Source: Bacteroidales bacterium UBA6088 (GTDB taxonomy: Bacteria; Bacteroidota; Bacteroidia; Bacteroidales; UBA932). From it: a stretch of 64,000 nt of DNA. The stretch is from NCBI GenBank assembly GCA_002428635.1, contig DIXE01000025.1, forward strand, positions 713 through 64,712. Direction: 5' to 3'. The notes beneath the pieces were generated by a model. That model was not told where the DNA came from. It did no database searches and was given only the letters and a program-made list of their open reading frames with translations. Positions 15,000-45,346 of the stretch are shown piece by piece; position 1 is the first letter of the stretch; each line of letters starts with the position of its first letter. Both the position numbers and the translations under genes were made by a program.

Positions 15000-17900
15000 A
15001 TGAGCAACCCTGTAAAATTATTTTTTTCTGTTTTTGCAATTATACTTCTTTCATTTGGGGTTTTATCCCGAGTTGGAGGTCAGGAGCATATAGGATATTC
15101 ACGACATTATGACAAGGGTGTGGAGTTGTTCAGCAAAGGGCTCTTCAAGGCAGCAGACCTGGAATTTCAAAAAGCTGTGCAACTCGCCGGTAATTCATCA
15201 GAAATTGCAGTTTCTGATGCAGAGGCATACAGGGCACTAATCTCAATAGAGCTCAAAAGAAAGAATCTGGATGCAGATGTTCACCGTTATGAGAGCATCT
15301 ATCCCTTTTCCAGCCAGCTTGAGACAATAAGGCTCAAGTATGCCTCTCATTACTTTGATCTTGAAGACTATGAAAGAAGTCTTGACATTCTCAACCGCAT
15401 AGAGGGAAAAAATCTGACCAGTGAACAAAAGACTGAATACGACTTCAGGCTGGGATTTGCTCTTATGCATACAGGGAAACCCACTGATGCACTTCCCCTT
15501 TTTGAGGGTGTATTCAAAGGAGACCATCCAACCTACACCAACGCAGCCGGCTATTATGCCGGGCACATATATTACAGTCTGAACAGATTTGACAAGGCAA
15601 TTGAAAAATTTTACGCTATAAGGGAGGATCCCAGATTTTCACTTTTATCCGGTTACTATATGCTGGAATCAAACTTTATGCTCAAAAACTTCAATGAAGT
15701 TGCACTTAAAGGAGAAGATCTTTACTTAAAGCTTGAAGGAGAGCTCAAAAGCAGATGTGCAAGGGTGCTTTCAGAAGCCTTTTTTGCCACAGGCAACACA
15801 GATAAGGCAAAATATTACTTTGAAAGGTATAGTCTCACGTCAAAAGAACTGACCCGTAACGACATTTACTATATGGGGACGATATCTTTCAAACTCAGGA
15901 ACTTCAGAACTGCAGCCGAATCTTTTACTCAGGTTATTGCCATCAACGACAGCATATCTCAAAATGCAAACTATCACCTGGGATACTGCTACACAGAGAT
16001 GAAAAATAAACAGCAGGCACTTTTATCCTTTAAAAGAGCTGCAGAAGAAGATTGGGACCAGTTAATAAAGGAGGATGCCCTCTTTAATTATGCAAAACTA
16101 TCATTTGATCTCAACTCTGATATCGCACCTTTCCGGAAATATCTGAGCCAGTACTCTCCACCCGACACAAAGTTCAATGAGATCCAGAACTATGTTGCAA
16201 GTTTTTATCTTCTGGGTAAGGATTACAAATCGGCAGTAGAAGCCCTCTCCTTAATAAGACAACCGTCAGAAAAAGATATTCTCAACCTGCAGAAAGCCTC
16301 TTTCTTAAGGGGTTTGCAGCTTTTCGACCTTGGCAGTTTCAGGGAGTCCGTGGCTTACCTTAAGCAGTCTGTAGAAAATTCAAAATACAATTCTGACATC
16401 AAAGATCTTGCAAATTTTTTTCTTGCTGAGGCATATTACAGGGACAACAAGTTCCAGAGTTCTGTAAATATCAACCGTGAACTTGTAACCGGAAATCCCG
16501 GATTCAGAAGAACATCAAAGTATCCGCTGGCAGTTTTTAATCTCGCCTACGGATATTTCAAGCTTTCGGATTTTAAAAATGCCGGTGAATGGTTCGGCAA
16601 ATTTATAGCATCCCCTTCAGGAGCTGCCGCCTACCTTGCAGAGGCCAGACTAAGGATGGGAGACTGCCTCTTTATGCAGAGAGACTATGCTTCTGCCGTT
16701 GAAACATACAGCAAGGCAGCAGGCAGCGATCCGGTAGAGACTACCTACGCAAAGTACCAGATGGCAATTTCATACGGACTATTAGGAGAAGATCAGAAGA
16801 AGATAGATATACTGCAGGATGTTATAAACAGTGGAAACAAGAACCGCTACTACCCGGAAGTTCTTTATGAGCTGGGAAGGACTCTTGTGCAAAACGGTCA
16901 GAATCAAAAAGCTATGGAATGTTTTTCTGAACTCGTCAACGATTTCAGACAAAGCAACTTCTATACTAAATCCCTGCTCGAAATGGGGCTTATCAGCTTC
17001 AATCAAAATGATACAGACAAAGCCATAACATTTTATAAAAGAATACTTCAGGAGAATCCAATGTCGCCGGAGGCACAAAACGCTCTGGCAGGACTTGAGA
17101 ATATCTATCAGGAGAGAGGACAAGCAGATGAATATCTTGCCTTTATTGATCAGCTTGGAATCTCCTCTTCAAAAAGCCCTGATGAAAGAGAGATAATGGT
17201 ATTCAACTCTGCAGAAAAACATTATCTATCCGGCAACTACCCTTCAGCTACAGCTTCACTCACCTCCTACCTGAACAGATACCCTGACGGTTCAAAAATC
17301 ATACAGGCTTACTACTATCTCGGAGAATCCCTGCAGAAGACGGGCAAACCTGAACAGGCCAGAGACGCTTATCTCAGGGTGATGGAAAAGGGATCGGGAT
17401 CTTTTTCTGAGCTTGCAACACTCAACTACTCACGTATATCATACAGTATGCAGGACTATCAGGAGGCTCTGAAAGGATTCTCTTCTCTGAGTCTGATTGC
17501 TGTCCTTGAGAACAACAAAATTGAAGCTTTTTTGGGGAAGATAAATTCTTTCTTTATGCTCAGACAATTAGAAAACGCTATTGCAGAGGCTTATAACTCA
17601 TCAAGATTCAACCTTTCCGAGCAAGAAACAGAGAGCGTAAAATATATTTTAGCCAAATCCCACTATCTTCTTGGAGAGAGATCAAAAGCAATTCCATTGC
17701 TCAAAGAACTTTCCGGAAACAAAATTACGCCAATAGGAGCCGAATGTGCATACCTGATAATTTCCAATTATTTCGATAATGGAGATTTTAACTCAGTAGA
17801 GAAGGAAGTCTTTTCTCTTTCAGATTCCGGTACTCCTCAAAAATACTGGCTGGCAAAAAGTTACATCTTGTTGGGAGATAGTTACGCCGAGCGTGAAAAC

Positions 17901-18017
17901 TGGGAACAGGCTGAGGCTACGTTCAGGAGCATATTGGAATCATACAAACCTGAATCTGAAGATGATATTGCTGAGCAATTAAAGATCAGGCTTGAAAAAA
18001 TTAAAAACCGTGAATAG
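15000..18017 (+). CDS. Large exported tetratricopeptide-repeat protein
   Basis: Signal peptide, then about 1000 aa of repeated TPR-like helical pairs (e.g. AGYYAGHIYY, ANYHLGYCY, AVFNLAYGYF, ARLRMGDC, VLYELGR). Confidence 0.85.
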   Translation: MSNPVKLFFSVFAIILLSFGVLSRVGGQEHIGYSRHYDKGVELFSKGLFKAADLEFQKAVQLAGNSSEIAVSDAEAYRALISIELKRKNLDADVHRYESIYPFSSQLETIRLKYASHYFDLEDYERSLDILNRIEGKNLTSEQKTEYDFRLGFALMHTGKPTDALPLFEGVFKGDHPTYTNAAGYYAGHIYYSLNRFDKAIEKFYAIREDPRFSLLSGYYMLESNFMLKNFNEVALKGEDLYLKLEGELKSRCARVLSEAFFATGNTDKAKYYFERYSLTSKELTRNDIYYMGTISFKLRNFRTAAESFTQVIAINDSISQNANYHLGYCYTEMKNKQQALLSFKRAAEEDWDQLIKEDALFNYAKLSFDLNSDIAPFRKYLSQYSPPDTKFNEIQNYVASFYLLGKDYKSAVEALSLIRQPSEKDILNLQKASFLRGLQLFDLGSFRESVAYLKQSVENSKYNSDIKDLANFFLAEAYYRDNKFQSSVNINRELVTGNPGFRRTSKYPLAVFNLAYGYFKLSDFKNAGEWFGKFIASPSGAAAYLAEARLRMGDCLFMQRDYASAVETYSKAAGSDPVETTYAKYQMAISYGLLGEDQKKIDILQDVINSGNKNRYYPEVLYELGRTLVQNGQNQKAMECFSELVNDFRQSNFYTKSLLEMGLISFNQNDTDKAITFYKRILQENPMSPEAQNALAGLENIYQERGQADEYLAFIDQLGISSSKSPDEREIMVFNSAEKHYLSGNYPSATASLTSYLNRYPDGSKIIQAYYYLGESLQKTGKPEQARDAYLRVMEKGSGSFSELATLNYSRISYSMQDYQEALKGFSSLSLIAVLENNKIEAFLGKINSFFMLRQLENAIAEAYNSSRFNLSEQETESVKYILAKSHYLLGERSKAIPLLKELSGNKITPIGAECAYLIISNYFDNGDFNSVEKEVFSLSDSGTPQKYWLAKSYILLGDSYAERENWEQAEATFRSILESYKPESEDDIAEQLKIRLEKIKNRE

Positions 18018-18026
18018 GGCTGCATT

Positions 18027-19865
18027 ATGAAATCAATCATAAACATAACATTTACAATTGTCGCGCTGTCAATAACAACTTCTTTTTCGGGGCAGCAGAA
18101 GATAGACCCTACTCTCGAGGTCAAAAGAGATTTTGATGTCAATCTGCTTGAGATACAGAAAAAGAAGATAAGGACTGACTTTGAGGACACAATCGGAAAA
18201 TTTGATCTCAATTTCAAATACTCAATTTTTGACAAACCTATTACAAATCTTTACGAGTTTACACCCATCAGATATGCCAGGCCAGAAACACCTGCAACTC
18301 TCAGGCATTCTCTTTTCTACTCAGATGCAGGCATAAACCTTCCATTCAATCCCCATCTTGATTTGTATCTCCAACCAAGGCTGCCCGGCTCACTTTCACT
18401 GGTATTTTACGGCAGACACAACTCCTATCTCGACAAGATCAGACTTATGGAGGATATTAACGGCACTCTGTCAAGAGGAGAAGAAAAAGTTTCTGCCCCG
18501 TCTCACACCAACAATCTGGGTGTAGAACTCAAATACAATTACAACGGAGGGAGAGTTGGCTTTAATATTGATTTCGAAAATAACCGCTTCTCCTATTACG
18601 GATACGATCAGGAAAGAGATCAGATTGCTCACCCGATGCCTGATTCATATATGGAGATATGGGAGCCGGTGTTTCAAACCCTTCCCAGAATTTTTACAAA
18701 TTCCTTCTTAAAAGATACTCTGTCTCACAGATTTGACAGTTTTTTTGCAAATGCCTTTCTGGAATCTGCCAACGGAACCAGATTGCCATTCTATTACAGA
18801 GCCTCATTCCAATACGGATACCTTAAAGACCGGCCATCTTACCGCCCGATGCTGTCCTCTGTCCCGGCACAACTTATTAACGACAGACCAGATTTTGAAG
18901 AGACATATTTTTCTGCATCCGGAGCCTTAGGATATATTTTTGCCACTCATCACAGGTTTGTTGCAGATATTAGCTATCAGGCATCAAACAGTGTAGCATC
19001 CAATTCTTTGGACAGATATGATCTGGAGATTCACCCCCACTATGTTTTTAACAGAGGAAAATGGATATTTGAAATTGGGCTCAAGTTCAACAAGTATGTA
19101 GATCCATCAATGGAGGCCTTCAACATCTTTTTTAGCGGAAATCTTTCATACAAGGTAGCAGACAATATTCTCTGGCTGTATGCCTCGGCAGACGGGAGAA
19201 ACAATTTCAGGAACTACCGGGGAATGTTGAGAGAGAATCCCTGGATTACTTCAAATATTGAGGTAAAAAACACAGAAGAGCCACTTGCAGTTAGAGCTGG
19301 TGCCAGAGGTCAAGTCTCAGACCGTCTGTCATTTAATATCTGGGGTGGGTACAATAAATACACCAACTTTTTGACCTATATCCACATGTCTGATATCTGG
19401 GCCGGTCCCCTGAACACATTCTGGGCTATGTACAAGGATATGTACAGATACGGATTTGGTGGGGAACTCTCGTGGAAATCAAAGAATTTTGAAGCAGGAA
19501 CTAGTTTTGAATACTCCAGTTACAAAAACAGAGACTCCTCGACAGTTTACAATCTTCCGCCATTTCAGTTAAAGGGTTTTGCCAGATACAACTACAGAAG
19601 CAGAATCTTTGCCGATGCAAGCATACATTATCGTTCAGGCAGTCCTACCCTGTTGTACTTCCACCCATATACCGGAGTTAATGCTGCAGATCAGAGCAAA
19701 ATTCAACCTTTTACTATGCTAAATCTGGGAATTACTTATGCATTCAATAGAAAAATCTCTTATTATTTCTTGATTAACAACATCTTAAATACCAACGAGT
19801 CCTATTATCCACTTTATGGAAATCCTGGAACAGGAATCGGTGCAGGTATCAAGCTTAATCTCTAA
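18027..19865 (+). CDS. Outer-membrane beta-barrel protein (TonB-dependent-receptor-like C-terminus)
   Basis: Signal peptide, amphipathic strands, FTMLNLGITY...FLINNILN near the C-terminus as in TBDT barrels, ends GIKLNL. Co-oriented with the TPR gene, 9 bp gap. Confidence 0.65.
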   Translation: MKSIINITFTIVALSITTSFSGQQKIDPTLEVKRDFDVNLLEIQKKKIRTDFEDTIGKFDLNFKYSIFDKPITNLYEFTPIRYARPETPATLRHSLFYSDAGINLPFNPHLDLYLQPRLPGSLSLVFYGRHNSYLDKIRLMEDINGTLSRGEEKVSAPSHTNNLGVELKYNYNGGRVGFNIDFENNRFSYYGYDQERDQIAHPMPDSYMEIWEPVFQTLPRIFTNSFLKDTLSHRFDSFFANAFLESANGTRLPFYYRASFQYGYLKDRPSYRPMLSSVPAQLINDRPDFEETYFSASGALGYIFATHHRFVADISYQASNSVASNSLDRYDLEIHPHYVFNRGKWIFEIGLKFNKYVDPSMEAFNIFFSGNLSYKVADNILWLYASADGRNNFRNYRGMLRENPWITSNIEVKNTEEPLAVRAGARGQVSDRLSFNIWGGYNKYTNFLTYIHMSDIWAGPLNTFWAMYKDMYRYGFGGELSWKSKNFEAGTSFEYSSYKNRDSSTVYNLPPFQLKGFARYNYRSRIFADASIHYRSGSPTLLYFHPYTGVNAADQSKIQPFTMLNLGITYAFNRKISYYFLINNILNTNESYYPLYGNPGTGIGAGIKLNL

Positions 19866-19964
19866 CAGATAAGTACTTACACTTGCTTTAACCGGGTGTA
19901 ATTTTCATCATTTTTATTAGGAATTTTAATCTTTTTTCCCTTACTTTGTTTTTCTAAAAAGTAG

Positions 19965-22890
<2,926 letters not shown>

Positions 22891-22900
22891 CAATAATCAA

Positions 22901-24154
22901 ATGGACATTTTTGAAAGATTAACCAACGACGAAGGCGGTCCGCTCGGACAATACAGAAAAAAAGCCCACGGATACTTTACATTTCCCAAACTGGAAGGCC
23001 AGATACAGCCCAGAATGATATTTAACGGAAAAGAGGTTCTTGCCTGGACATTCAACAACTATCTCGGACTTGCCAACCATCCGGAGGTAAGAAAAGCAGA
23101 TGCAGATGCTGCTGCAAAGTGGGGACTGGGTTACCCGATGGGCGCCAGAATGATGTCTGGGCACACAAAGCTTCACGAACAGCTTGAAAATGAGCTTGCA
23201 GAATTCGAACTTAAAGAGGATGCATATCTGTTCAATTACGGATATCAGGGTATGGTATCCACAATAGACGCCCTTGTAAACAGACACGACATAATTGTTT
23301 ATGACTCTGAGGCTCACGCCTGCATAATGGATGGAGTAAGGCTCCATATGGGACAGAGAATTGTATATCCACACAACAATATTGAGAAATGCGAGAAGTC
23401 ACTTGCAAGAGCAGCAAAGCTTGTAGAAGAGACCGGAGGAGGAATACTTCTGATTACAGAAGGTGTTTACGGAATGACAGGAGATCTCGGAATTCTTGAC
23501 AAGATTGTAGAGCTTAAGAAAAAATTCAGGTTCAGAATACTGATTGACGATGCACACGGATTCGGGGTTATGGGAGACAACGGCAGAGGTACTTCTGAAC
23601 ATTACGGAGTTATGGATGAAATAGATCTCTATTTCGGAGCTTTCGCAAAATCAATGGCTTCTATAGGCGGATTCGTTGCAGGCCCGTCATCAATAATCAA
23701 TTATCTTCGCTATAACCTTCGTTCCCAGATATATGCAAAATCACTGCCTATGGCTCTTGTAGAAGGAAACCTCAAGAGACTTGAGCTTATCCGTACACGC
23801 CCGGAACTTCGTGAAAAATTGTGGACCATAACAAGAGCTATGCAGGAGGGTCTCAGGAAGAGAGGATTCGACATCGGGAAAGCAGAAGCCTGTGTAACAC
23901 CTGTATTCCTTCAGGGAAATGTAGCCGAAGCCACAAATATTCTAATTGATCTGAGGGAGAACCACCGGATATTCTGTTCAGCAGTGATATATCCCGTAGT
24001 TCCAAAAGGTGTTATAATGTTCAGGATAATCCCTACCGCTATGCACTCTCTCGAAGATGTCGAGTATACTCTTAACGCCTTTGGCAAGATTGCCGAAAAC
24101 CTTAAGAAAGGTCTTTACAAGGCAGAGGAGATGCAGGACAAAGCCCTTGAATAA
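22901..24154 (+). CDS. PLP-dependent alpha-oxoamine synthase, most likely cysteate acyl-ACP transferase (SulA/CapB, sulfonolipid synthesis)
   Basis: AOS motifs NNYLGLA, GARMMSG, TEGVYGMTGD, DDAHG, FAKS. N-terminus MDIFERL...GGPLGQY..KAHGYFTFPKLEG and RSQIYAKSLP resemble the SulA/CapB clade as I recall it, rather than BioF, KBL or SPT. Confidence 0.72.
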   Translation: MDIFERLTNDEGGPLGQYRKKAHGYFTFPKLEGQIQPRMIFNGKEVLAWTFNNYLGLANHPEVRKADADAAAKWGLGYPMGARMMSGHTKLHEQLENELAEFELKEDAYLFNYGYQGMVSTIDALVNRHDIIVYDSEAHACIMDGVRLHMGQRIVYPHNNIEKCEKSLARAAKLVEETGGGILLITEGVYGMTGDLGILDKIVELKKKFRFRILIDDAHGFGVMGDNGRGTSEHYGVMDEIDLYFGAFAKSMASIGGFVAGPSSIINYLRYNLRSQIYAKSLPMALVEGNLKRLELIRTRPELREKLWTITRAMQEGLRKRGFDIGKAEACVTPVFLQGNVAEATNILIDLRENHRIFCSAVIYPVVPKGVIMFRIIPTAMHSLEDVEYTLNAFGKIAENLKKGLYKAEEMQDKALE

Positions 24155-24187
24155 TTATTTAAACTTAAATTTAGTTCTCCTGTAAGT

Positions 24188-24994
24188 ATGCTAAGAGACA
24201 AAGTGGTAATTATTACCGGGGCAAGTTCCGGTATAGGTCTTGCTGCAGCAAGGGAGTTTGCGTCGAGAGGGGCATATGTGGTACTTGCTGCCAGGAACAT
24301 TTCTAGACTAGCTGAAATTGAAAAGGAGTTATCAGAAATTACCCGTGTGCTTTCTGTAAAGTGCGACGTAACCCTGGAAGAAGAATGCAAACACCTGGTT
24401 GACAAGACAGTTGAAAAATTCGGAAAAATAGACTGTCTTGTCAATAATGCAGGCATCTCTATGAGAGCTCTTTTTAAAGATCTCGACCTCAAAGTAATAC
24501 GGGAACTTATGAATGTAAACTTTTGGGGAACTGTCCACTGCACCAAATATGCACTTCCCTGGCTTTTGAAAACACAGGGATCTCTGGTTGGTGTTATCTC
24601 AATTGCTGGCTTCAAAGGATTACCGGGCAGAACCGGTTACTCTGCATCCAAGTTTGCAATCTACGGATTTCTGGATACAATAAGAATAGAGCACCTTAAG
24701 GATAATCTTCACGTAATGATCTTTGCCCCCGGATTCACAGCATCCAATATCAGAGAAAAGGCCCTTGTATCAGATGGTTCAGAGCAAGGTGAAACCCCCA
24801 GAGACGAAGATAAAATGATGAGTGCTAGGAAGTGTGCGCGACATCTGGCAAACGGGGTGGAGAAGAGGAAGCGCCAGATAGTGCTGACATTTACAGGTAA
24901 ACTTCTGGTATTTCTCAATAAATTTTTCCCCGCTTTAGTTGACCGGCTTGAATATAATTTTATGAAAAAAGAGCCCGGATCTCCCCTCAAATAG
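24188..24994 (+). CDS. SDR oxidoreductase, probable 3-ketocapnine (3-dehydrocapnine) reductase
   Basis: TGASSGIG, NNAG, YSASK. Lies 33 bp downstream of the AOS gene, as for capC/sulB-type reductases. Confidence 0.65.
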   Translation: MLRDKVVIITGASSGIGLAAAREFASRGAYVVLAARNISRLAEIEKELSEITRVLSVKCDVTLEEECKHLVDKTVEKFGKIDCLVNNAGISMRALFKDLDLKVIRELMNVNFWGTVHCTKYALPWLLKTQGSLVGVISIAGFKGLPGRTGYSASKFAIYGFLDTIRIEHLKDNLHVMIFAPGFTASNIREKALVSDGSEQGETPRDEDKMMSARKCARHLANGVEKRKRQIVLTFTGKLLVFLNKFFPALVDRLEYNFMKKEPGSPLK

Positions 24995-26238: not shown

Positions 26239-26805
26239 ATGAACGAAAATTTTAAAAAGCAGATTGCCCGCATTGATGATATTGTCGAAATCAGCAAAAT
26301 CTTGAGCAGCAGCACACAATTACTTGAGAGCATTTCAAAATACAAGAAGCATCCTTACGATCCTCAATTTTTTCGTGACGGATACAAGGTTCCTATGAAT
26401 TTCCATAAAAAAGGTGATACAATCTATCTTTTGGGAGATTATCACATCAAAAGCGAAGACAACAGTTCCTCAGTAGAGATATTATACGAAGCCATCAGAA
26501 TGGATATGGTGTGCAGTGCTCATCCCCTTACAAGAACAGGGCTGTTTTGCGGACTTGTCGAGGCTTGTTCGGTGAACAGGCTTGGGTTTGACATAACCTC
26601 AGACGCTGAGATTCCAGACAAGGAATTTCTTTTCAACGACAAGAATTCCTCAATTCTGATATCTGTAAACTCAGAGAAGGAGGGAAAATTTGTTGACTAT
26701 ATTTTCAAAAACGGCATCAGACTCACTCTGCTAGGCCACGTTACAAAAGGAGAGCTGAGGCTCGACGAACTATCATTCGGATTTATTGACCAGTTTCTGG
26801 AGTAA
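26239..26805 (+). CDS. Stand-alone AIR-synthase/PurL C-terminal-like domain protein
   Basis: KKGDTIYLLG, SAHPLTRTGLFCGLVEAC (cf. PurL SAHDxSxGGLxxxLxE), EFLF...ILISV and LLGHVTKG resemble the last PurM-like domain of PurL. Confidence 0.55.
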   Translation: MNENFKKQIARIDDIVEISKILSSSTQLLESISKYKKHPYDPQFFRDGYKVPMNFHKKGDTIYLLGDYHIKSEDNSSSVEILYEAIRMDMVCSAHPLTRTGLFCGLVEACSVNRLGFDITSDAEIPDKEFLFNDKNSSILISVNSEKEGKFVDYIFKNGIRLTLLGHVTKGELRLDELSFGFIDQFLE

Positions 26806-27515
26806 TGGTCCCACTGCACACCGGCAGAGATTCGATTGCCTCAATGTTCAACAGTATCTCCGCGAGGTATGATCTTTTAAATCATCTTCTCTCCTTTGGA
26901 GTTGACAGATTCTGGAGAAGAGCTGTTGTAAGGAGAATTCAGGCAGAAAAAGTAGTTAATGTACTTGATATTGCCTGTGGAACCGGAGATCTTACCATAG
27001 CTCTCTGGAAAAAGGGATTAAATGTTACAGGCGTTGATATTGCAGAAAAAATGGTCGAAATTGCCAAAAAAAAATCTTCGGTATTGAATATCAGTGAAAA
27101 AGCTGCTCCTCAGTACATTATTGCTCCGGCTGAGAGTCTTCCTTTTGGGCACAACAGCTATGACGCAGTTACAATCGGTTTTGGGATACGAAATTTTGAA
27201 GACAGAAAAAAGGCTCTGTCAGAAATAAAAAGAGTGCTTAGACCCGGCGGATTTCTTGCAGTTCTGGAATTTTCAACAGCCAGGAATCCCGTGTGGAGAA
27301 AAATTTTCTGTTTCTATTTTTTTAAGATCCTCCCAATTATTGGCAGGATAATATCTAATGATTCTCAGGCTTACAGATACTTACCTGAATCTGTAAGGAA
27401 ATTTCCAACCCCGGCGGAATTTTGTGAGGAGCTCAAAATATCCGGATTTGAAAAATTAAGTGCAATATCCAAAACAGGTGGTATTGCAGTAACATATTTT
27501 GGCTACAAAACTTGA
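26805..27515 (+). CDS. menG: Demethylmenaquinone methyltransferase (UbiE/MenG)
   Basis: MFNSISARYDLLNHLLSFGVDRFWR, LDIACGTGD, GFGIRN, YRYLPESV..FP. Confidence 0.93.
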   Translation: MVPLHTGRDSIASMFNSISARYDLLNHLLSFGVDRFWRRAVVRRIQAEKVVNVLDIACGTGDLTIALWKKGLNVTGVDIAEKMVEIAKKKSSVLNISEKAAPQYIIAPAESLPFGHNSYDAVTIGFGIRNFEDRKKALSEIKRVLRPGGFLAVLEFSTARNPVWRKIFCFYFFKILPIIGRIISNDSQAYRYLPESVRKFPTPAEFCEELKISGFEKLSAISKTGGIAVTYFGYKT

Positions 27516-28993
27516 ATATGACAGTGCACGAGAGCATAACACTGGGCTTTTATCTGGTATATTACATACTGGCCATAGTTGCATCTGCCAGGATAATATA
27601 CCAACGTCTGGATCCGGTCAAATCTCTCTCCTGGGTGGTTGTCATTCTCCTTTTACCATATCTGGGACTTATTGTCTATCTGCTCTTTGGACAAAACTTC
27701 AGAAAGACAAAGATATACAACAGAAAGGGGGTCCGGGATGAAAGATACAGAAGGTTTATGAGCAACAATCAGATGAAGCAGTTCAGATCATTCCCCGAAT
27801 CAATTCCCCGTGAGTTGCAGAAATATCTTAAAATGGTAATGCTGAACCTTAAGGGTAACGGAAGCATTGTGGGCCTCAATAGCGAAATTGAGCTCTTCTT
27901 CTCAGGCAGAGAAGCTCTTGATTCAATGTACGAATGTATCTCGTCTGCAAAGCGTCATATCCACCTGCAATCATATATAATTGTTGACGACACTACCGGA
28001 AAACTGTTCAGAGACCTTCTGATCAAGAAATCTGCCGAAGGAGTTGAAGTGAGGCTGATGTATGACGATGTGGGCTGCTTCAGCCTTAGTAAAAGCTTCA
28101 CCGACAAACTTAAGAATGCCGGAATTGAGGTGCTTAAATTCGCTCCTGTAAGGTTTCTGTCACCTACTTCCAAGATTAACTACAGGAATCACAGAAAAAT
28201 TCTGGTTGTAGACGGTGTGACAGGATTTCTGGGCGGTGTTAATATTGCTGACCGTTACTATCATGGCGGGAATTTTGAGGAGTGGAGAGATACTCACATA
28301 AAAATTTCAGGAGAATCTGTGCTTGCACTCCAGTCAAGTTTTCTTTTGGACAGGTATTTTGTGATAAAACAGCAGTTCAAGCGCAAAAAGAAATATTTTC
28401 CCGCTATAAGCCAGATGGACATAAAGCTCGAAGAGAGCAATGCAAAATACTATTCACAAATAATTACATCCGGCCCCGACAGCGATTGGGCAAGCATAAT
28501 GCAGTGTTATTTTCTGGCAATCTCCAACGCCAGGAAAAATGTATTTCTCATTACCCCCTATTTCACTCCTAACGAATCCCTGCTGAATGCATTAAAGATT
28601 GCAGCCCTCGGAGGAGTAGATGTGTCTATAATGATACCTGAAAAGAGCGACACAACTCTGGCCTACTGGAGCTCTATGTCCTATGCTACAGAACTGCTCG
28701 AGGCAGGAGTAAGGGTTTATCTTTTCAGAAAAGGCTTTAACCATTCAAAAGTTATAAGTATAGACGGTGAATTCTGCATCATTGGATCAGCAAATTTTGA
28801 CAACCGTTCTCTTGACCATAATTTTGAAATCACAAGCATAATTTATAGTAGCGAAGTAACATCAGAGGTTGACAGACAATTTATCAAAGACACTGAACGA
28901 TGCAAGTCCCTTGCCGGCTCAAAATGGGCCAGAAGAAGTGTCCGGAATAAAATTAAAGAGTCATTTGCCAGATTGTTGAGTCCTTTGCTGTAA
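27512..28993 (+). CDS. cls: Cardiolipin synthase
   Basis: N-terminal TM/PLD-N region, two HKD motifs (NHRKILVVD, NHSKVISID), GSANFD.RS. Confidence 0.95.
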   Translation: MNMTVHESITLGFYLVYYILAIVASARIIYQRLDPVKSLSWVVVILLLPYLGLIVYLLFGQNFRKTKIYNRKGVRDERYRRFMSNNQMKQFRSFPESIPRELQKYLKMVMLNLKGNGSIVGLNSEIELFFSGREALDSMYECISSAKRHIHLQSYIIVDDTTGKLFRDLLIKKSAEGVEVRLMYDDVGCFSLSKSFTDKLKNAGIEVLKFAPVRFLSPTSKINYRNHRKILVVDGVTGFLGGVNIADRYYHGGNFEEWRDTHIKISGESVLALQSSFLLDRYFVIKQQFKRKKKYFPAISQMDIKLEESNAKYYSQIITSGPDSDWASIMQCYFLAISNARKNVFLITPYFTPNESLLNALKIAALGGVDVSIMIPEKSDTTLAYWSSMSYATELLEAGVRVYLFRKGFNHSKVISIDGEFCIIGSANFDNRSLDHNFEITSIIYSSEVTSEVDRQFIKDTERCKSLAGSKWARRSVRNKIKESFARLLSPLL

Positions 28994-29013
28994 AAATATA
29001 CAACCCAGGGACA

Positions 29014-30249
29014 ATGCTAAAAAAAATTCTTCTGCTAACTCTTTCTGTAGTCTTAACAAATCACACTCTAAGTGCTTTCTTATTGCAGGCATCGCCGGAA
29101 GACACTCTCAATCTCTCCTGTAAAAAACCGGGAACTTTGATAAAATGTTTTGTTCCTTCAGCACCTTTTCTGCTTTCTGGTGTTATGTTGGTAAACAAAG
29201 GGAATAGTTTTCAATTGCTTAGAAATGAGTATGTCCCATCCTTCAGAACCTCTGCGGACGACTTTACTATGTTTGTTCCGTCTTTGATGATATTTGGACT
29301 TAAAGCGGCCGGAGTCAAGACTCAGAGCAGTTGGAGGTCTCTCTCTCTGAATTATATTATTTCGGCCTCAATAATGGGGACGATTACATTGGGATTGAAG
29401 AATTCCGTTTCCTCCAAACGTCCAGATTTTACGAACAATAAGAGCTTTGCCAGTGGTCACTCAGCGTTTTCGTTTATGGGAGCTCAAATTGTATCCAGAG
29501 AATACGGGAAAGATCACCCCTGGATAAGCATCGGAGCCTATGGATTCGCAACAGCTACAGCTCTGATGAGAGTCCTTAACAACAAACATTATTTTCAGGA
29601 TGTGCTTATGGGAGCCGGAATCGGTATCCTATCCGCAGAAGCAGGATACGCCACCGGAAGACTGATTCTTAAAGAGGGCAGGAAGGGAAAACCTGATTAC
29701 TGGATAGAGGAGGATAAGTTTAGTAAACCTTTGCTTAAGTTTTCAATGGTAACCGGCTTCAACAATGTGTTAAACAAGGTGCAATCCGGGAAATACACAA
29801 CTCTGAAAGTTAAGCAGGGTGTTACTTTTGGAGCAGAAACAGCCTACAATGTTTCGGAAAGATTTTCTGCAATTCTATCCGGTCACCTCAACAGCGCCCC
29901 TACTGTAATTGAAAGAGCACAGTTTTCAATAACAGGACCAGTACTTAGCTGGCAATCAGTTGTTTTTCAACCCGAATTTTCCTATGATGTTCACAGGAAC
30001 GGCTCTCTTGCAATTAGAGCCGGAGGCGGTTATGCCGGAGTGTCTCAAAGAGATTCATACAATTATTCAATATTATCTCTGTCAGGGCTTTCTCTGAACG
30101 CAGGCATAAATTATACTTATCGCCCGGACAGCCAGCTACAGTACAGATTATTCACAAGTTTTGAAGAGATCTTCTTAAAAAGTGACACAAAAAGCCTTAC
30201 ATCTCTAAGTTATGGTGCAGCAATCTCAATGTGCATTGGAAAGAGATAA
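29014..30249 (+). CDS. PAP2-family phosphatase fused to a C-terminal beta-strand-rich (outer-membrane-barrel-like) domain
   Basis: PAP2 motifs KNSVSSKRPD, SFASGHS, RVLNNKHYFQDV. The last ~190 aa show alternating aromatic/Gly strands (GVTFGAETAYNV, AIRAGGGYAG, LNAGINYTY). Confidence 0.72.
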   Translation: MLKKILLLTLSVVLTNHTLSAFLLQASPEDTLNLSCKKPGTLIKCFVPSAPFLLSGVMLVNKGNSFQLLRNEYVPSFRTSADDFTMFVPSLMIFGLKAAGVKTQSSWRSLSLNYIISASIMGTITLGLKNSVSSKRPDFTNNKSFASGHSAFSFMGAQIVSREYGKDHPWISIGAYGFATATALMRVLNNKHYFQDVLMGAGIGILSAEAGYATGRLILKEGRKGKPDYWIEEDKFSKPLLKFSMVTGFNNVLNKVQSGKYTTLKVKQGVTFGAETAYNVSERFSAILSGHLNSAPTVIERAQFSITGPVLSWQSVVFQPEFSYDVHRNGSLAIRAGGGYAGVSQRDSYNYSILSLSGLSLNAGINYTYRPDSQLQYRLFTSFEEIFLKSDTKSLTSLSYGAAISMCIGKR

Positions 30250-37307: not shown

Positions 37308-37985
37308 TCAGCCGTTAAGGCAAATATTCAAAAGCATCTGCCTGTTTACTATGCTTATATTCCTTCCTTCCATTACAATAATCCCGTCTCTTACAAATTC
37401 TGACAACACGCGACTGACACTTTCCCGGCTTGCATCCACAAGGTTTCCCATCTCCTCCTGATTGATCGACAGAGTAAATTTTTCTGAACGGTAAATCTCA
37501 TCGGCAAATTCCAGAAGAACTCCGGCAATCTTTCCCCTTATATGCCTCTGAGTACGGTTAACGCACTTCTGATAGGACTCCAGTTCGCTTTTGCAAAGCT
37601 CAAGAATTATCTGGTTGCTAAAGTCAGAGTTTAAATTCAGCAATTTCCGGAATGTAGTTATGTCTATGAAACAAACCTCAGAAGGCTCCACTGCAGTTAC
37701 AGAATACTGGTTTACTTTGTCGCCGAAAGTTGTTGGCAATCCAAGATAATTCCCCTGGCTTACAATTCTTACAACCTGTGTGTAGTAAGGTCCCTGAATA
37801 TGTATCTTGGCAAGACCTGTCCTCAGGTAGGCAACATTGGTAGAATAGGTTCCCTGCTTAATTATTGAGTCTCCCTTTTTGAATTTTACTGTTACGCAGT
37901 TTGCAGACAACTTTTCACTCTCTTTGGCTGTCAGTTTTTCTGCAGCTTTTGACTTCATTGTGCAGAAGTTACACTTGTTATCCAT
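37308..37985 (-). CDS. Crp/Fnr family transcriptional regulator with FNR-like cysteines
   Basis: cNMP-binding beta-roll, HTH QEEMGNLVDASRESVSRVLSEF, Cys5-x2-Cys8, Cys30 and internal SEVC105FID. Confidence 0.9.
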   Translation of the reverse strand: MDNKCNFCTMKSKAAEKLTAKESEKLSANCVTVKFKKGDSIIKQGTYSTNVAYLRTGLAKIHIQGPYYTQVVRIVSQGNYLGLPTTFGDKVNQYSVTAVEPSEVCFIDITTFRKLLNLNSDFSNQIILELCKSELESYQKCVNRTQRHIRGKIAGVLLEFADEIYRSEKFTLSINQEEMGNLVDASRESVSRVLSEFVRDGIIVMEGRNISIVNRQMLLNICLNG

Positions 37986-38021
37986 TTGTATCCGTCAAAA
38001 TTTTTGCAAATATAGAAATAA

Positions 38022-38037
38022 TGTGACCAATATCACA
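38022..38037. promoter_or_regulatory. CRP-type operator TGTGA-N6-TCACA
   Basis: Perfect TGTGAccaataTCACA in the divergent spacer between the Crp/Fnr gene and the dsrE-tusA-hdr operon. Confidence 0.75.
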
Positions 38038-38129
38038 ATTTTTATAGTTTAAAATCATAGCTCAATTTGCTTGCATTTATGCTTATAATTGCTTACTTTG
38101 CACATAAATAAAATTTAATACAAATTACT

Positions 38130-38696
38130 ATGCAAGAGGATTTACAGCAGAAGATTGACCAGTTAAGCAACGAGGTCGAAAATCTGCAAAAAAAGGTAAA
38201 AACTATTCAGAACAGCAGAAAAGACCAGCTATCCATTGCCTGTGTATCGGGAGATATGGACAAGATACTGGCCACAATGATTATTTCACTTGCAGCGGCT
38301 GCAATGGATACAAAAGTCAAGATATTTTTCTCATTCTGGGCTCTGTCTGCTCTGAGGGATCCAAAAAAGAATCCGAAAGGTAAAGACATCATCTCAAAAA
38401 TGTTCGGTTTTATGCTGCCAAAAAGTAAGAACAACCTTGGTCTGTCAAAGATGAATATGTGCGGAATGGGACCTGTGATGATAAAATATCTTATGAAAAA
38501 GCACAACGTTCTCTCTCTGGACGATATGTTTAAAACCGCAGGAGAACTTGGAATCGAAATAATTGTTTGTGAAATGTCTATGGGTCTTATGGGATTCAAA
38601 AAGGAGGAGATGATAGATTATCCTCACCTCACTTATGCAGGAGCTGCAACATTTGTAACCGATGCCGGAGAGAGTGCAGCACAACTATTTGTATAA
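38130..38696 (+). CDS. DsrE2-type (DsrE/DsrF/DrsH-like) sulfur-carrier protein
   Basis: SGDMDK..A.MII...AAAM, IFFSFWAL..LR, LSKMNM.GMG..M, conserved VCEMSM Cys, GAATF. Confidence 0.85.
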   Translation: MQEDLQQKIDQLSNEVENLQKKVKTIQNSRKDQLSIACVSGDMDKILATMIISLAAAAMDTKVKIFFSFWALSALRDPKKNPKGKDIISKMFGFMLPKSKNNLGLSKMNMCGMGPVMIKYLMKKHNVLSLDDMFKTAGELGIEIIVCEMSMGLMGFKKEEMIDYPHLTYAGAATFVTDAGESAAQLFV

Positions 38697-38725
38697 TTAT
38701 TATTAAACCAATAAAATTTAGAAAA

Positions 38726-38977
38726 ATGACACAGGATGAACTGAGAGCTCTGCAAGTAACAAAGAGCGTAGATGCAAGAGGAACAGCTTGCCCCGGACCC
38801 CTGCTCGAAGCAAAAAAGGCACTTGGCACTATTGAAGAGGGAGAAATTATGGAGATCCTCTCTGCCGATGAAGGCACCAAGGTGGATATCCCAAAGTGGT
38901 GTACCAAGCAGGGGCACGATTATCTGGGAACAGTAGAGGAGAACGGTTACTACAAAATTTACATGAGAAAGAATTAA
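38726..38977 (+). CDS. tusA: TusA-family sulfurtransferase
   Basis: VDARGTACPGPLL (CPxP), LSADEGTKVDIPKWC...GH. Confidence 0.9.
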   Translation: MTQDELRALQVTKSVDARGTACPGPLLEAKKALGTIEEGEIMEILSADEGTKVDIPKWCTKQGHDYLGTVEENGYYKIYMRKN

Positions 38978-38986
38978 ACAAGAGCA

Positions 38987-39370
38987 ATGTCAAAACAGGC
39001 AAAGATCCTTGTATTCTCAACCGAAAAAATTTCTGACCCTGCCATAGATATGGCGGGATTACTCAAGCTTCACTATTCTCCGCAGGTATATACAATTGCA
39101 CTCAGATGTTCCAGTTCGATAAAGCCAAGATGGATCATACACGCTTTTGAGAAGGGATTTGACGGAGTATTTATTGCTGCAGACGGCAGCGATTGTGCGT
39201 TTAGTGAGAGCTGTACAGAAAAAACCGGAAATATTGTTAGTCAGACTCATAAACTTATGCAGCAGAAAGATATTGACCCTGCCAGACTCAGAATGGCAGC
39301 AATATGTTCCGTCTGCAGCGAATCGTTTGTAAAACAGATCAAAAGTTTCAATGAGTATCTGTTAAAATAG
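38987..39370 (+). CDS. MvhD/FlpD-like hydrogenase iron-sulfur subunit (divergent)
   Basis: IALRCSSSIKP..I..AFEKGFDGVFI, IDPARLR...ICSVC..F. Confidence 0.8.
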   Translation: MSKQAKILVFSTEKISDPAIDMAGLLKLHYSPQVYTIALRCSSSIKPRWIIHAFEKGFDGVFIAADGSDCAFSESCTEKTGNIVSQTHKLMQQKDIDPARLRMAAICSVCSESFVKQIKSFNEYLLK

Positions 39371-39379
39371 AGAAGTACA

Positions 39380-40681
39380 ATGGAAAAAGAGAAAATAAAC
39401 CTTTTCTTTGACGCAATGGTCATTGGAGGGGGAATTGCAGGGGGAGAATCCGCCTTAAATCTGGCAAACAATGGATACAAGGTTATTATTGTAGAAAAGG
39501 ATCTCTCCATAGGGGGAAAGATGATAATGTTAAGCAAGGTATTCCCAACGCTGGACTGCTCTGCCTGCATCACAACCCCAAAAGTATCTGAAATCTCAAG
39601 ACATAATAACATCACAATTTTTACCGAGAGCGATGTAAACTCTGTAGTAAAAATGGGAGAGAGACACTTCAGGGCAGAAATTACCAGGCGTCCCAGATAT
39701 GTTGTAGCCGAGGATTGTACCGGCTGCCAGAAATGCGAAGAGGCTTGTCCTGTTATTGTAAAGGACCAATACCAGTATAATCTTATCGGCAGAAAGGCAG
39801 CTTTTATTCCTTTCTCCATAGCCAGTCCCAAAATTGCAGCGATTGACATTGAAAACTGCACTCTTTGCGGAGCCTGTGAAAAGGCTTGCCCGTCGAACTG
39901 TATAGATTTCACACAAAAGGCTCTGGATTATGTGATTGATATAAAAAGTGTAGTGGTTGCAACCGGATTCAAGCTCTTCGACCCATTAAAAATCGAAAGG
40001 TATGGATTCGGCAAATTTAAGAATGTACTGACCTCTATGCAGATGGAGAGACAGCTTGCCCCTACCCGCCCATTTAACACAATACTCAGGCCATCAGACG
40101 GTAAAGTTCCCGACAAGATTGCCTATGTTTTGTGTGCCGGCTCAAGAGATGATTCCGAGGGGAATCCTATTTGCTCCCAGATTTGCTGTATGTACTCCAT
40201 TAAACAGGCTCAGCTGCTCATGGGAGCTCTTCCAATGGCAGACATTACAATTTACTACATTGACATAAGGGCATTTGGCAAGGGCTACGATGAGTTCTAT
40301 GAACAGGCAAAAGGGATGGGAGTCTCTTTTATAAAGGGAAAAATCGGCAAAATCACAAAGGGAGAAAGAGGAGACCTTACACTCAGGTACGAAGATGTTT
40401 CCACCGGAAAGATCAAGGAGGCACGGCACGATATGGTAGTTTTGTCGGTAGGTGTACTTGCAAACGATGAGGCTGTTCCTATGTTCAGATCAAACACTCT
40501 TTTGACAGATCCTCTCAATTACATAAGGCAGGAAGACCCAATAATCAGCCCGGCAAAGACATCCATAGAAGGGGTTTTTGTCTCCGGAACAGCCTCCGGA
40601 CCTATGGACATTCCCGACTCAATACTCTCGGCAGGTGCGGCAGCTTCACAGGCAACGGCCTATCTTAAGAGAATCAATTAA
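39380..40681 (+). CDS. HdrA/QmoA-like FAD and FeS flavoprotein (no N-terminal domain, has inserted ferredoxin)
   Basis: VIGGGIAG, KVFPTLDCSAC, CTGCQKCEEACP, CTLCGACEKACP, CAGSRD...CSQICCMYSIK, GTASGPMDIPDSI. Confidence 0.9.
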   Translation: MEKEKINLFFDAMVIGGGIAGGESALNLANNGYKVIIVEKDLSIGGKMIMLSKVFPTLDCSACITTPKVSEISRHNNITIFTESDVNSVVKMGERHFRAEITRRPRYVVAEDCTGCQKCEEACPVIVKDQYQYNLIGRKAAFIPFSIASPKIAAIDIENCTLCGACEKACPSNCIDFTQKALDYVIDIKSVVVATGFKLFDPLKIERYGFGKFKNVLTSMQMERQLAPTRPFNTILRPSDGKVPDKIAYVLCAGSRDDSEGNPICSQICCMYSIKQAQLLMGALPMADITIYYIDIRAFGKGYDEFYEQAKGMGVSFIKGKIGKITKGERGDLTLRYEDVSTGKIKEARHDMVVLSVGVLANDEAVPMFRSNTLLTDPLNYIRQEDPIISPAKTSIEGVFVSGTASGPMDIPDSILSAGAAASQATAYLKRIN

Positions 40682-40692
40682 CATTCAGCGGT

Positions 40693-42420
40693 ATGGAAAA
40701 AAGAATAGGTGTTTATATATGCGCTTGCGGAGGCAATATTTCTGATTATGTTGACATTGAAAAGGTAAAAGAGTCTATTACCGGAGAAAATGCAGTTTTG
40801 CTGGCAAAGACTACGATGTTTGCCTGCGGGGATGCCAATCAGAAGGATATGGATTCCGATATCAGAAAAAATGATCTTAACGGAATTGTGGTAGCATCCT
40901 GCTCACCCAAGCTTCACCTCTCAACCTTCAGGGCTGTAAGTGAAAGAGCAGGTCTCAACAAATACAACTATGTTCACGCAAACATAAGGGAACAGGCTTC
41001 CTGGGCACACTCCGATGATAAACCGGGAGCAACCGAAAAGGCAATACTGCTGGTAAAGGCAGCCATTGCTAAGGCAAGGCACGCCTCCTCACTGGAACCC
41101 ATTAAGATAAAATCAAAAAAGAGTGTAGCGGTTATTGGGGCCGGAATCGCCGGGATAAAGGCTGCACAGGCTCTGTCGGCAATGGGAGATAAAGTTTATC
41201 TTATAGAAAAGGAGAGTAAAATCGGGGGTAATCTTTTAAATATCAACAGAGTAAATCCCGAATCAGAAACTGGGGAAGAAATTGTCAAGAGGCTTTCCAA
41301 AGAAATTGAGAATGAAGAAAATATCACATTGCTCACAGGTCACAGAATAACCTCAGGTTCCGGAAATATTGGCGATTTTGTACTCACCCTTAAAGGCAAC
41401 AACAACCCTGGAGAGGATAATTTTCCCGAAAAAGAGATAAATGTGGGTTCTGTTCTTGTTGCAACAGGTTTTGAGAGTTACTCTCCCCTGACGGGTGAAT
41501 ACGGATACGGCCAGCTTCCCGGAGTGGTTACTCTTGCACAGTTCAACAAGCTGCTCAAGGGACAGAATGGAATGAGCTTTGTTGCTTTTGGCAAAGAGGT
41601 AAAAAGTGTCGCTTTCATTTACTGTGTAGGGAGCAGAGAGATAAAGGGAGACAATAAGTACTGTTCAAGATATTGCTGCAGCGCCGCAATTCAGAGTGCT
41701 CTGGATTTGTCAGAGAGATTCCCGGATTCTGACATTTATCACCTCACAAGGGGGGTAAGAAGCTATGGCAAGCAGGAGCTCCTGTACAAAGAAGCCAACA
41801 GAAGAGGCGATCTTTTTATTCAGTTTCCCGACAAAGAACCTCCGGTGATTGAAGAGAAAGATGACAAAATAATTATTAAGGTCAAGGATATTCTTAGCGG
41901 CAAAAGGGAGCTGGAAGCAGAGACCGATATAGTTGTGCTTGTAACAGGAATGGTTCCCGTACAGGACGATAATACCGGTAGCATATTCAAACTTCCAAGA
42001 GGCAGAGATAAATTCTACAACGAGATACATATGAAACTCAGACCGGTTGAAACAGCCATCGATGGTGTTACAATTGCCGGAGCCTGCCAGGGGCCAAAGA
42101 ATGCTTCCGAAAGCGTGAACTCTGCTCTGGCTGCAGCAGCCAAGTCCCACTCTCTTGTAAGTACCGGAGAGCTGGAGCTCGAACCAATCGTTGCCTATGT
42201 AGATGAAGATAAGTGTACCTGGTGCGATGAGTGCAGCAAAGCCTGCCCTTTTAACGCAATTTCTGTAATTGAGATGTTCCAAAAGAGTATTGCCCGGATC
42301 AACAAGTCAACCTGCAAAGGATGCGGAATGTGTCTTCCGGTTTGCCCGACAGACGCAATTGAACTTATATCATTTACCAACAAAGAGATAGAAGATATGA
42401 TTGATGTTCTGTCCCAATAA
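40693..42420 (+). CDS. HdrA/QmoB-like FAD and FeS flavoprotein (N-terminal domain and C-terminal ferredoxin)
   Basis: RIGVYICACGGNI, FAC, VVASCSPKLH, NIREQ.SWAH, VIGAGIAG, CVGSR...CSRYCC, GACQGPK, CTWCDECSKACP, CKGCGMCLPVCP. Confidence 0.9.
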   Translation: MEKRIGVYICACGGNISDYVDIEKVKESITGENAVLLAKTTMFACGDANQKDMDSDIRKNDLNGIVVASCSPKLHLSTFRAVSERAGLNKYNYVHANIREQASWAHSDDKPGATEKAILLVKAAIAKARHASSLEPIKIKSKKSVAVIGAGIAGIKAAQALSAMGDKVYLIEKESKIGGNLLNINRVNPESETGEEIVKRLSKEIENEENITLLTGHRITSGSGNIGDFVLTLKGNNNPGEDNFPEKEINVGSVLVATGFESYSPLTGEYGYGQLPGVVTLAQFNKLLKGQNGMSFVAFGKEVKSVAFIYCVGSREIKGDNKYCSRYCCSAAIQSALDLSERFPDSDIYHLTRGVRSYGKQELLYKEANRRGDLFIQFPDKEPPVIEEKDDKIIIKVKDILSGKRELEAETDIVVLVTGMVPVQDDNTGSIFKLPRGRDKFYNEIHMKLRPVETAIDGVTIAGACQGPKNASESVNSALAAAAKSHSLVSTGELELEPIVAYVDEDKCTWCDECSKACPFNAISVIEMFQKSIARINKSTCKGCGMCLPVCPTDAIELISFTNKEIEDMIDVLSQ

Positions 42421-42427
42421 TTCAAAA

Positions 42428-42703
42428 ATGATGATAGAAAAGAAAGAGACATTTAAGATATTGAGGGAACAACACAAGGTTCCCGAAAGTGTAAAAGAGA
42501 ATCTAAAGGATTTCAACAAGATAAAAAGATCAATTCTTCTGGCTCTTAAAGAGGAAGATCTCACTGTAGCCGAATTATCCGGAAAGCTTCAGATACCTGC
42601 AGACGAAATTGTTTACTATCTTCTCTCGCTGGTAAAGTTCGGTTTTGTAAAAACCGGAGAGATTGACAGTATGGACGAGTACTTCAAATATAAACTTAAG
42701 TGA
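42428..42703 (+). CDS. Small winged-helix (ArsR-like fold) protein
   Basis: ILLALKEEDLTVAELSGKLQIPADEIVYYLLSLVKFGFV..GE.....YFKY. Embedded in the hdr operon. Confidence 0.7.
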   Translation: MMIEKKETFKILREQHKVPESVKENLKDFNKIKRSILLALKEEDLTVAELSGKLQIPADEIVYYLLSLVKFGFVKTGEIDSMDEYFKYKLK

Positions 42704-42704
42704 G

Positions 42705-45346
<2,642 letters not shown>

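Follow-up and report, generated by a model that had tools for sequence, protein, structure and literature searches.

Adjacent genes for a putative cysteate acyltransferase and a candidate 3-ketocapnine reductase downstream of gyrB in a Bacteroidales genome

We have analysed a stretch of 64,000 nucleotides from the uncultured anaerobe Bacteroidales bacterium UBA6088 (assembly GCA_002428635.1, contig DIXE01000025.1, positions 713 to 64,712), called the window below, and within it a pair of adjacent genes that lies downstream of gyrB. The first gene encodes an alpha-oxoamine synthase (AOS) that is very probably a cysteate-C-fatty acyltransferase (CFAT) of the SulA/CapB type. The second encodes a short-chain dehydrogenase/reductase (SDR) that is likely to be a 3-ketocapnine reductase. 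The pair would thus supply the second and third steps in the published pathway to sulfonolipids (capnine/sulfobacin), an assignment that we consider probable. The features concerned are these:

22901-24154, plus strand: AOS gene, predicted CFAT orthologue, 417 aa; Pfam Aminotran_1_2 (PF00155, E=1.3e-33)
24155-24187, no strand: intergenic spacer between the CFAT and SDR genes, 33 nt, with no terminator-like structure
24188-24994, plus strand: classical SDR gene, 268 aa; Pfam adh_short (PF00106, E=2.4e-53)

The first-pass annotation of this DNA had described an AOS-family gene followed after 33 nt by an SDR gene, both co-oriented with gyrB and an M23/LysM gene, and the open reading frames (ORFs) lie exactly as described. 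It had also suggested that the organism makes sulfonolipids. The genomic evidence supports this suggestion, as a CFAT, a candidate reductase SDR and a cysteate synthase are all encoded in the same genome. In the pathway that we propose, an archaeal-type (threonine-synthase-like) cysteate synthase would convert phosphoserine and sulfite to cysteate. The CFAT would then form the external aldimine of pyridoxal 5'-phosphate (PLP) and cysteate on Lys250, followed by decarboxylation, and would condense the PLP-cysteate adduct with acyl-acyl carrier protein (or acyl-coenzyme A) to give 3-ketocapnine. Finally, the SDR would reduce the 3-keto group to yield capnine; the reductant is probably NADPH, and the C-terminal helix probably places the enzyme at the membrane. 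Substrate, product and cofactor, and the actual production of sulfonolipids by this organism, are predicted from homology, active-site conservation, gene order and co-occurrence.

A search of all solved structures in the PDB shows SulA of Alistipes finegoldii (7U7H; E=1e-179, 600.8 bits) as the closest match to the 417-aa protein, followed by the CFAT of Capnocytophaga ochracea (28EH; E=2.8e-170, 569.7 bits), which aligns over the full length. The next-best families are far lower: serine palmitoyltransferase (SPT) at 245.8 bits, KBL at 202 and BioF at about 139. On NCBIfam the protein is under the cut-off of the SPT model (NF047600; 310.2 bits versus 640), of KBL (295 versus 460) and of BioF (284 versus 426). 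Taken together, these scores bear out the earlier view that the AOS is a SulA/CapB-type enzyme.

The active site points the same way. We checked the residues that are named in PMC9304779 and PMC13692747, and 17 of the 21 are kept, including Asn52, Gly81, Ala82, Gly114, Tyr115, His139, Cys141, Glu187, Asp216, His219, Phe245, Ala249, Lys250, Lys280 and Arg375; at 12 of the positions checked, the residue is the same in all of 79 related sequences. Among the first-shell residues around PLP-cysteate (Asn52, Phe113-Gly114-Tyr115, His139, Cys141, His219, Thr247 and Lys250), seven of nine are identical. The PLP lysine is Lys250, within FAKSMA, which aligns with Lys251 of SulA and Lys250 of the C. ochracea enzyme (CoCFAT). 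The string RSQIYAKSLP, which the earlier annotation had singled out, is present at residues 274-283 and contains the marker lysine, Lys280 (in IYAKSLP), equivalent to SulA Lys281 and CoCFAT Lys280 and invariant in the 79 related sequences. The accompanying idea that this lysine could bind the sulfonate is not supported by published data. The SulA K281A variant binds cysteate normally but is inactive (PMC9304779), and in the C. ochracea enzyme crystallized with cysteate, Asn52, His139 and Lys250 hydrogen-bond to the sulfonate, with Lys280 making a backbone contact to the PLP phosphate in the external-aldimine structure (PMC13692747). This suggests that the lysine is a family marker needed for catalysis and not an established sulfonate ligand.

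Two characterized enzymes allow a closer comparison. SulA of A. finegoldii (alfi_1224; Radka et al., 2022, PMC9304779) aligns with the window CFAT over its full length without gaps and shares the PLP lysine, the marker lysine and the active-site Asn, His and Arg. Both enzymes occur in genomes that encode an archaeal/ThrC-like cysteate synthase. About one-third of the residues differ, however, with 62% identity over a 76-residue C-terminal stretch, and SulA Thr248 is Ala in the window enzyme. The gene settings differ as well: the window CFAT gene has gyrB before it and an SDR gene after it, whereas in Alistipes the genes of the validated reductases are reportedly not linked to it. When the 76-residue SulA fragment was compared with our sample of the order, no genome exceeded 78% identity. 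The second enzyme, CapB/CoCFAT of C. ochracea (28EH/28FA; PMC13692747), has residue numbering identical to that of the window CFAT. The three residues that contact the sulfonate in CoCFAT are all kept, as are Tyr115 and Lys280, two residues that mutagenesis has shown to be essential. Phe113, Thr247, Met277 and Phe278 of CoCFAT are Tyr, Ala, Ile and Tyr, respectively, in the window protein, and the changes at 277 and 278 are natural variants. Capnocytophaga makes cysteate with the unrelated, cystathionine-beta-synthase-like CapA, which was not found in the genome that holds the window. The differences from the published pathway are minor, and consist of two clade-wide active-site variants, the conserved position behind gyrB and the adjacent reductase, which contrasts with Alistipes and Chryseobacterium.

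The adjacent SDR has the motif TGASSGIG at residues 10-17 and an intact Asn111-Ser138-Tyr151-Lys155 tetrad. Arg36 suggests that NADPH is the cofactor, and the C-terminal helix is hydrophobic/amphipathic. The protein matches NCBIfam NF004825 (307.8 bits; cut-off 215), a model named only as SDR family oxidoreductase, and public records of its homologues (listed relatives at least 64% identical, nearly all above 70%) give this name only.

Gene order links the SDR with the CFAT. We recovered 80 named loci with the window CFAT, and in about 45 of them, down to 59% CFAT identity, the SDR gene is directly 3' of the CFAT gene. In 51/80 loci gyrB is directly 5' of the CFAT gene or of an M23 gene followed by the CFAT gene; the M23 gene is present between them in the closest 29 loci only and the more distant loci read gyrB then CFAT. 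The records with this synteny are labelled Bacteroidales bacterium CF, Candidatus Egerieisoma, Cryptobacteroides and Merdivivens. The CFAT gene is alone in loci labelled Marinilabiliaceae, Salinivirgaceae, Tenuifilaceae, Prolixibacteraceae, Lutibacter and Chitinophagaceae.

Co-occurrence was then scored in 201 genomes from the same GTDB order, sampled so as to balance the families, and counts of genomes below refer to this sample. With thresholds of E <1e-160 and at least 59% identity for CFAT orthologues and at least 48% identity for SDR orthologues, CFAT is present in 152 genomes and the SDR in 111, of which 106 are CFAT-positive (106/5 with the SDR versus 46/44 without it). Four of the five SDR-positive, CFAT-negative genomes are no more than 93% complete, and the SDR is present in none of the 28 genomes whose best match to the CFAT is only SPT-like. 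The Fisher p-value of the association (1e-13) is overstated, because kin genomes do not count as independent observations. Most genomes carry the two genes at a distance from each other, which shows that the co-occurrence is more than linkage.

Additionally, the SDR resembles a reductase of known function. AF_KCR1 of A. finegoldii (WP_009596236.1; Wu et al., 2024, PMC11211663) is a validated 3-ketocapnine reductase and, like the window protein, a classical SDR; its tagged mass of 30.4 kDa indicates that it is perhaps somewhat shorter. AF_KCR1 is reported as unclustered with cfat, whereas the window SDR gene adjoins the CFAT gene. Comparison was limited to one 22-residue active-site stretch printed in Fig. 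S10 of that paper, in which AF_KCR1 (HGSIVGISSVAGLHGLPGRTGY) and the window SDR (QGSLVGVISIAGFKGLPGRTGY) are identical at 15/22 positions. Sixteen diverse orthologues of the window SDR are identical to the AF_KCR1 stretch at 11-18 of the 22 positions. The motif GLPGRTGY is not present in the printed stretches of the other 18 candidates in the figure, of CapC or of BT_0972 (PMC11211663). This suggests that the window SDR is a probable orthologue of AF_KCR1. Two further enzymes share its reaction type and pathway position. The first, CapC of Ornithobacterium rhinotracheale, is said to be a dehydrocapnine reductase, reportedly described by Liu and colleagues in Biochemistry in 2022. The second is BT_0972, the 3-ketosphinganine reductase of Bacteroides thetaiotaomicron (PMC9278070). 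The printed active-site stretches of both are nevertheless dissimilar to the window SDR, and the absence of its orthologues from the 28 SPT-only genomes indicates that it is not of the BT_0972 type.

The genome (2.27 Mb in 51 contigs, 99.8% complete) also encodes an enzyme for the first step. There is no cysteate synthase gene in the window, as had been noted earlier, and we found one on another contig (G000:C30:100152-101441). Its product is one of six PALP-fold proteins in the genome and matches the archaeal-type cysteate synthase model TIGR03844 with 473.7 bits (cut-off 324.9). The first-pass annotation had proposed a search for capA. Throughout the genome, the best match to the CapA-type model (NF053679) is a CysK-like protein with 176.5 bits against a cut-off of 600, and the CapA type was rejected; the archaeal type is present instead. 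Alistipes and Odoribacter are likewise reported to combine an archaeal-type cysteate synthase with SulA (PMC10191378). This synthase is present in 41 genomes of the sample, of which 39 are CFAT-positive. With CFAT in 152/201 genomes and the synthase mostly in CFAT-positive ones, the pathway appears to be very common in the order. In two genomes, G134 (L138:7421-8305, minus strand) and G090 (L140:9477-10334, minus strand), a ThrC-like gene stands between the CFAT gene and a set of heterodisulfide reductase (Hdr)-like genes. Its product is only 23% identical to the cysteate synthase described here and could represent a third type of this enzyme.

Several observations count against assigning the pair to this pathway. 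In the acyltransferase, Thr247, a ligand of the PLP phosphate in SulA and CoCFAT, is replaced by Ala, and Phe113 by Tyr. Both are clade-wide natural variants: Ala247, a mark of the entire gyrB-linked clade, is present in 53/79 related CFATs, mostly from loci with gyrB directly upstream of the CFAT gene, and Tyr113 in 21/79. The CoCFAT T247A variant retained 19-48% activity (PMC13692747). Among the 152 CFAT-positive genomes, 46 are without an orthologue of the window SDR. The validated reductases of A. finegoldii and Chryseobacterium gleum are several, scattered and unclustered with cfat (PMC11211663); the two genes thus need not be neighbours, and the SDRs may be redundant. The likeness to AF_KCR1 rests on 22 printed residues, and the stretch printed for O. 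rhinotracheale CapC has little in common with the window SDR (about 6/21). Finally, there was no match in the genome to PF01507 (phosphoadenosine phosphosulfate (PAPS) reductase/CysD), PF01583 (adenosine phosphosulfate kinase), PF01747 (ATP sulfurylase) or PF01077 (sirohaem sulfite/nitrite reductase), although control genomes responded. The genome thus has no recognisable route to sulfite, which leaves one of the pathway's inputs unexplained.

The observations on the reductases lend themselves to another explanation, in which the CFAT is correctly identified and the adjacent SDR has a different job, serving another lipid or a housekeeping carbonyl reduction, with one or more unlinked SDRs reducing 3-ketocapnine. 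The scatter and redundancy of the validated reductases in the two organisms tested, Alistipes and Chryseobacterium, would fit such an arrangement, as would the CFAT-positive genomes that have no window-type SDR, the unspecific naming in public records and the CFAT operon of G090, which contains a different SDR (37% identical). We nevertheless consider this explanation unlikely, as the adjacency is kept across several families, the genomes with an orthologue are nearly all CFAT-positive and none is of the SPT type even where the genes are far apart, and the motif of the window SDR resembles that of the validated AF_KCR1. On synteny, phylogenetic profile and active-site stretch, the window SDR is the best candidate for the capnine-pathway reductase that had been proposed for it. 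The several active SDRs per organism, together with the 46 genomes that do without it, suggest that it is one of several solutions to this step.

The missing sulfite genes raise the question of whether the pathway operates de novo. If sulfite is not made, the CFAT could use imported cysteate, or the pathway imported sulfite, or the genes could be relics. This seems very unlikely to us. None of the three genes is damaged, and they are conserved throughout the family with catalytic residues that do not vary; a conserved Hdr-like module is directly upstream of the cysteate synthase gene in each of the three sampled genomes of the family; and sulfidic habitats may offer sulfite or thiosulfate. PAPS-reductase-family genes are present in other genomes with a cysteate synthase of this type (G029, G106, G115 and the congener G152). 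Least credible of all is an SPT or KBL/BioF-type AOS in a pair that makes sphingoid bases or something else unrelated to sulfonolipids, for although these enzymes have a common fold and chemistry and the SPT model is the top NCBIfam match (NCBIfam returned no CFAT model), the protein is under all three cut-offs and scores 601 bits with SulA versus 246 with SPT, Lys280 stands where SPT has Ala (PMC9304779) and where the genome's own Kbl, which reads RPYLFSNSIP at the aligned place, has Asn, that true Kbl (685 bits; cut-off 493) and a cysteate synthase are encoded elsewhere in the genome, six of six assayed CFAT-clade enzymes preferred cysteate, and 19 SPT-like substitutions gave no serine activity (PMC13692747).

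The source of sulfite can be considered from the neighbourhood of the cysteate synthase gene, which is the last gene of an apparent operon outside the window:

G000:C30:96541-101441 (L105:6542-11442), plus strand: marR to cysteate synthase

The order of genes in this block is marR, a short HdrA-like flavoprotein (354 aa), an HdrC-like 2x[4Fe-4S] ferredoxin (110 aa), a fusion protein of about 596 aa and the cysteate synthase, the ATG of which overlaps the preceding stop codon by 1 nt. The fusion consists of a membrane domain, two ferredoxin motifs and two CCG domains (HdrD/DsrK-like). The order from marR through the Hdr-like genes to the cysteate synthase gene is kept in 3/3 sampled genomes of the family. 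As a general neighbour of cysteate synthase the module was rejected: it is adjacent in only 3/30 loci, all from one family; in the remaining 27, from other families, the synthase gene is flanked by unrelated housekeeping genes. Orthologues of the short HdrA-like gene are nevertheless present in 73 genomes, of which 71 are CFAT-positive, and in three other families the module is beside or inside the lipid operon. In G164 the genes for HdrA, HdrC and the CCG protein are followed directly by the CFAT gene. In G134 the CFAT gene, the distant ThrC-like gene and the Hdr-like genes form one co-directional cluster, and G090 has the same cluster plus the different SDR gene mentioned above. The module is thus linked independently to different pathway genes in different families, which is good evidence of a functional tie. 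Supply of sulfite is the obvious candidate for this tie. One form that it could take is that a membrane-anchored Hdr-like complex makes sulfite for cysteate and sulfonolipids through sHdr-like oxidation of protein-bound sulfane sulfur; we put this forward as a tentative possibility. No link between sulfonolipids and heterodisulfide reductases was found in the literature searched.

A different connection had been raised by the first-pass annotation, namely that the sulfur-handling operon 13 kb away in the window might be tied to cysteate synthesis:

37308-43793: Qmo-like/DsrE2/TusA operon, with the QmoB-like gene at 40693-42420

The distribution of this operon speaks against such a tie. Full-length orthologues of the QmoB-like gene are present in 11/201 genomes, all of them CFAT-positive, and only three of the 11 have an archaeal-type cysteate synthase, which is about the base rate. 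Conversely, the operon is missing from 141 of the 152 CFAT-positive genomes, and the sister genus, represented by G006, has the lipid genes without it. The Hdr-like module is the better candidate for a link with sulfite. Of the 11 genomes with the Qmo-like operon, 10 have the module with the short HdrA as well, and in G174 the two are about 4.5 kb apart on one contig. This leaves room for a looser role, in which the window's operon might feed or partner the Hdr-like complex in the few lineages that have both.

The genes and signals around the pair are as follows:

19877-19901, plus strand: terminator-like hairpin after the gene preceding gyrB; from a consensus scan and reading of the sequence, weak and pattern-level
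about 19944-19951, between the hairpin and the gyrB ATG: near-match to the Bacteroidota -7 box, TTACTTTG; weak and pattern-level
19974-21983, plus strand: gyrB, DNA gyrase subunit B, 669 aa, identified from its translation; first gene of the co-oriented block
21919-22890, plus strand: M23 peptidase with C-terminal LysM, 323 aa as called; Pfam PF01551 and PF01476
25052-25990, minus strand: D-2-hydroxyacid dehydrogenase gene, convergent; Pfam 2-Hacid_dh and NCBIfam NF006263, 430.6 bits (cut-off 389)

The M23 ORF as called overlaps the 3' end of gyrB, and a later Met may be its true start. The gaps between the M23 and CFAT genes (10 nt) and between the CFAT and SDR genes (33 nt) were inspected and contain nothing terminator-like. 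This tight spacing, with a gene order that is kept in about 45 related loci, is consistent with a single transcription unit, and the CFAT-SDR pair is probably transcribed together with gyrB. The hairpin at 19877-19901 is the likely upstream boundary of the unit and the convergent gene is its downstream boundary. Scans for sigma-70 promoters and for terminators gave counts near those expected from shuffled sequence and are uninformative. The M23/LysM product, of the cell-wall hydrolase or activator type, has no part in the lipid pathway. The D-2-hydroxyacid dehydrogenase gene is in the same position in 26 close loci only. It was considered as an enzyme of the phosphoserine pathway and rejected, being conserved only within the close family and under the phosphoglycerate dehydrogenase cut-offs, and we do not claim a link to phosphoserine supply.

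Two further observations concern the surroundings. Upstream, a 612-aa ORF with no Pfam match (18027-19865, plus strand) lies between gyrB and the gene for a 1005-aa tetratricopeptide-repeat protein (15000-18017). Just downstream of the pair's neighbourhood there is a run of quinone/membrane-lipid genes (26805-30249, plus strand):

26805-27515, plus strand: UbiE/MenG-type methyltransferase
27512-28993, plus strand: PLD-type cardiolipin-synthase-like protein
29014-30249, plus strand: PAP2-domain protein

In summary, the pathway is already published and is common in the order, and a CFAT-SDR pair of this kind is ordinary. What the pair adds is one more lineage that is likely to produce sulfonolipids, namely vadinHA17-like Bacteroidales from the environment with 'Bacteroidales bacterium CF' among their relatives. 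It also adds a clean genomic argument as to which SDR subfamily acts as the dedicated 3-ketocapnine reductase in a large part of the order, which is useful because published work had found scattered, redundant reductase candidates without clustering. The more interesting point lies outside the window, where a sulfite-consuming cysteate synthase, in a genome with no recognisable source of sulfite, has an Hdr-like redox module in front of it. If this module does supply the sulfite, the making of sulfonate lipids by strict anaerobes of sulfidic habitats would be accounted for.

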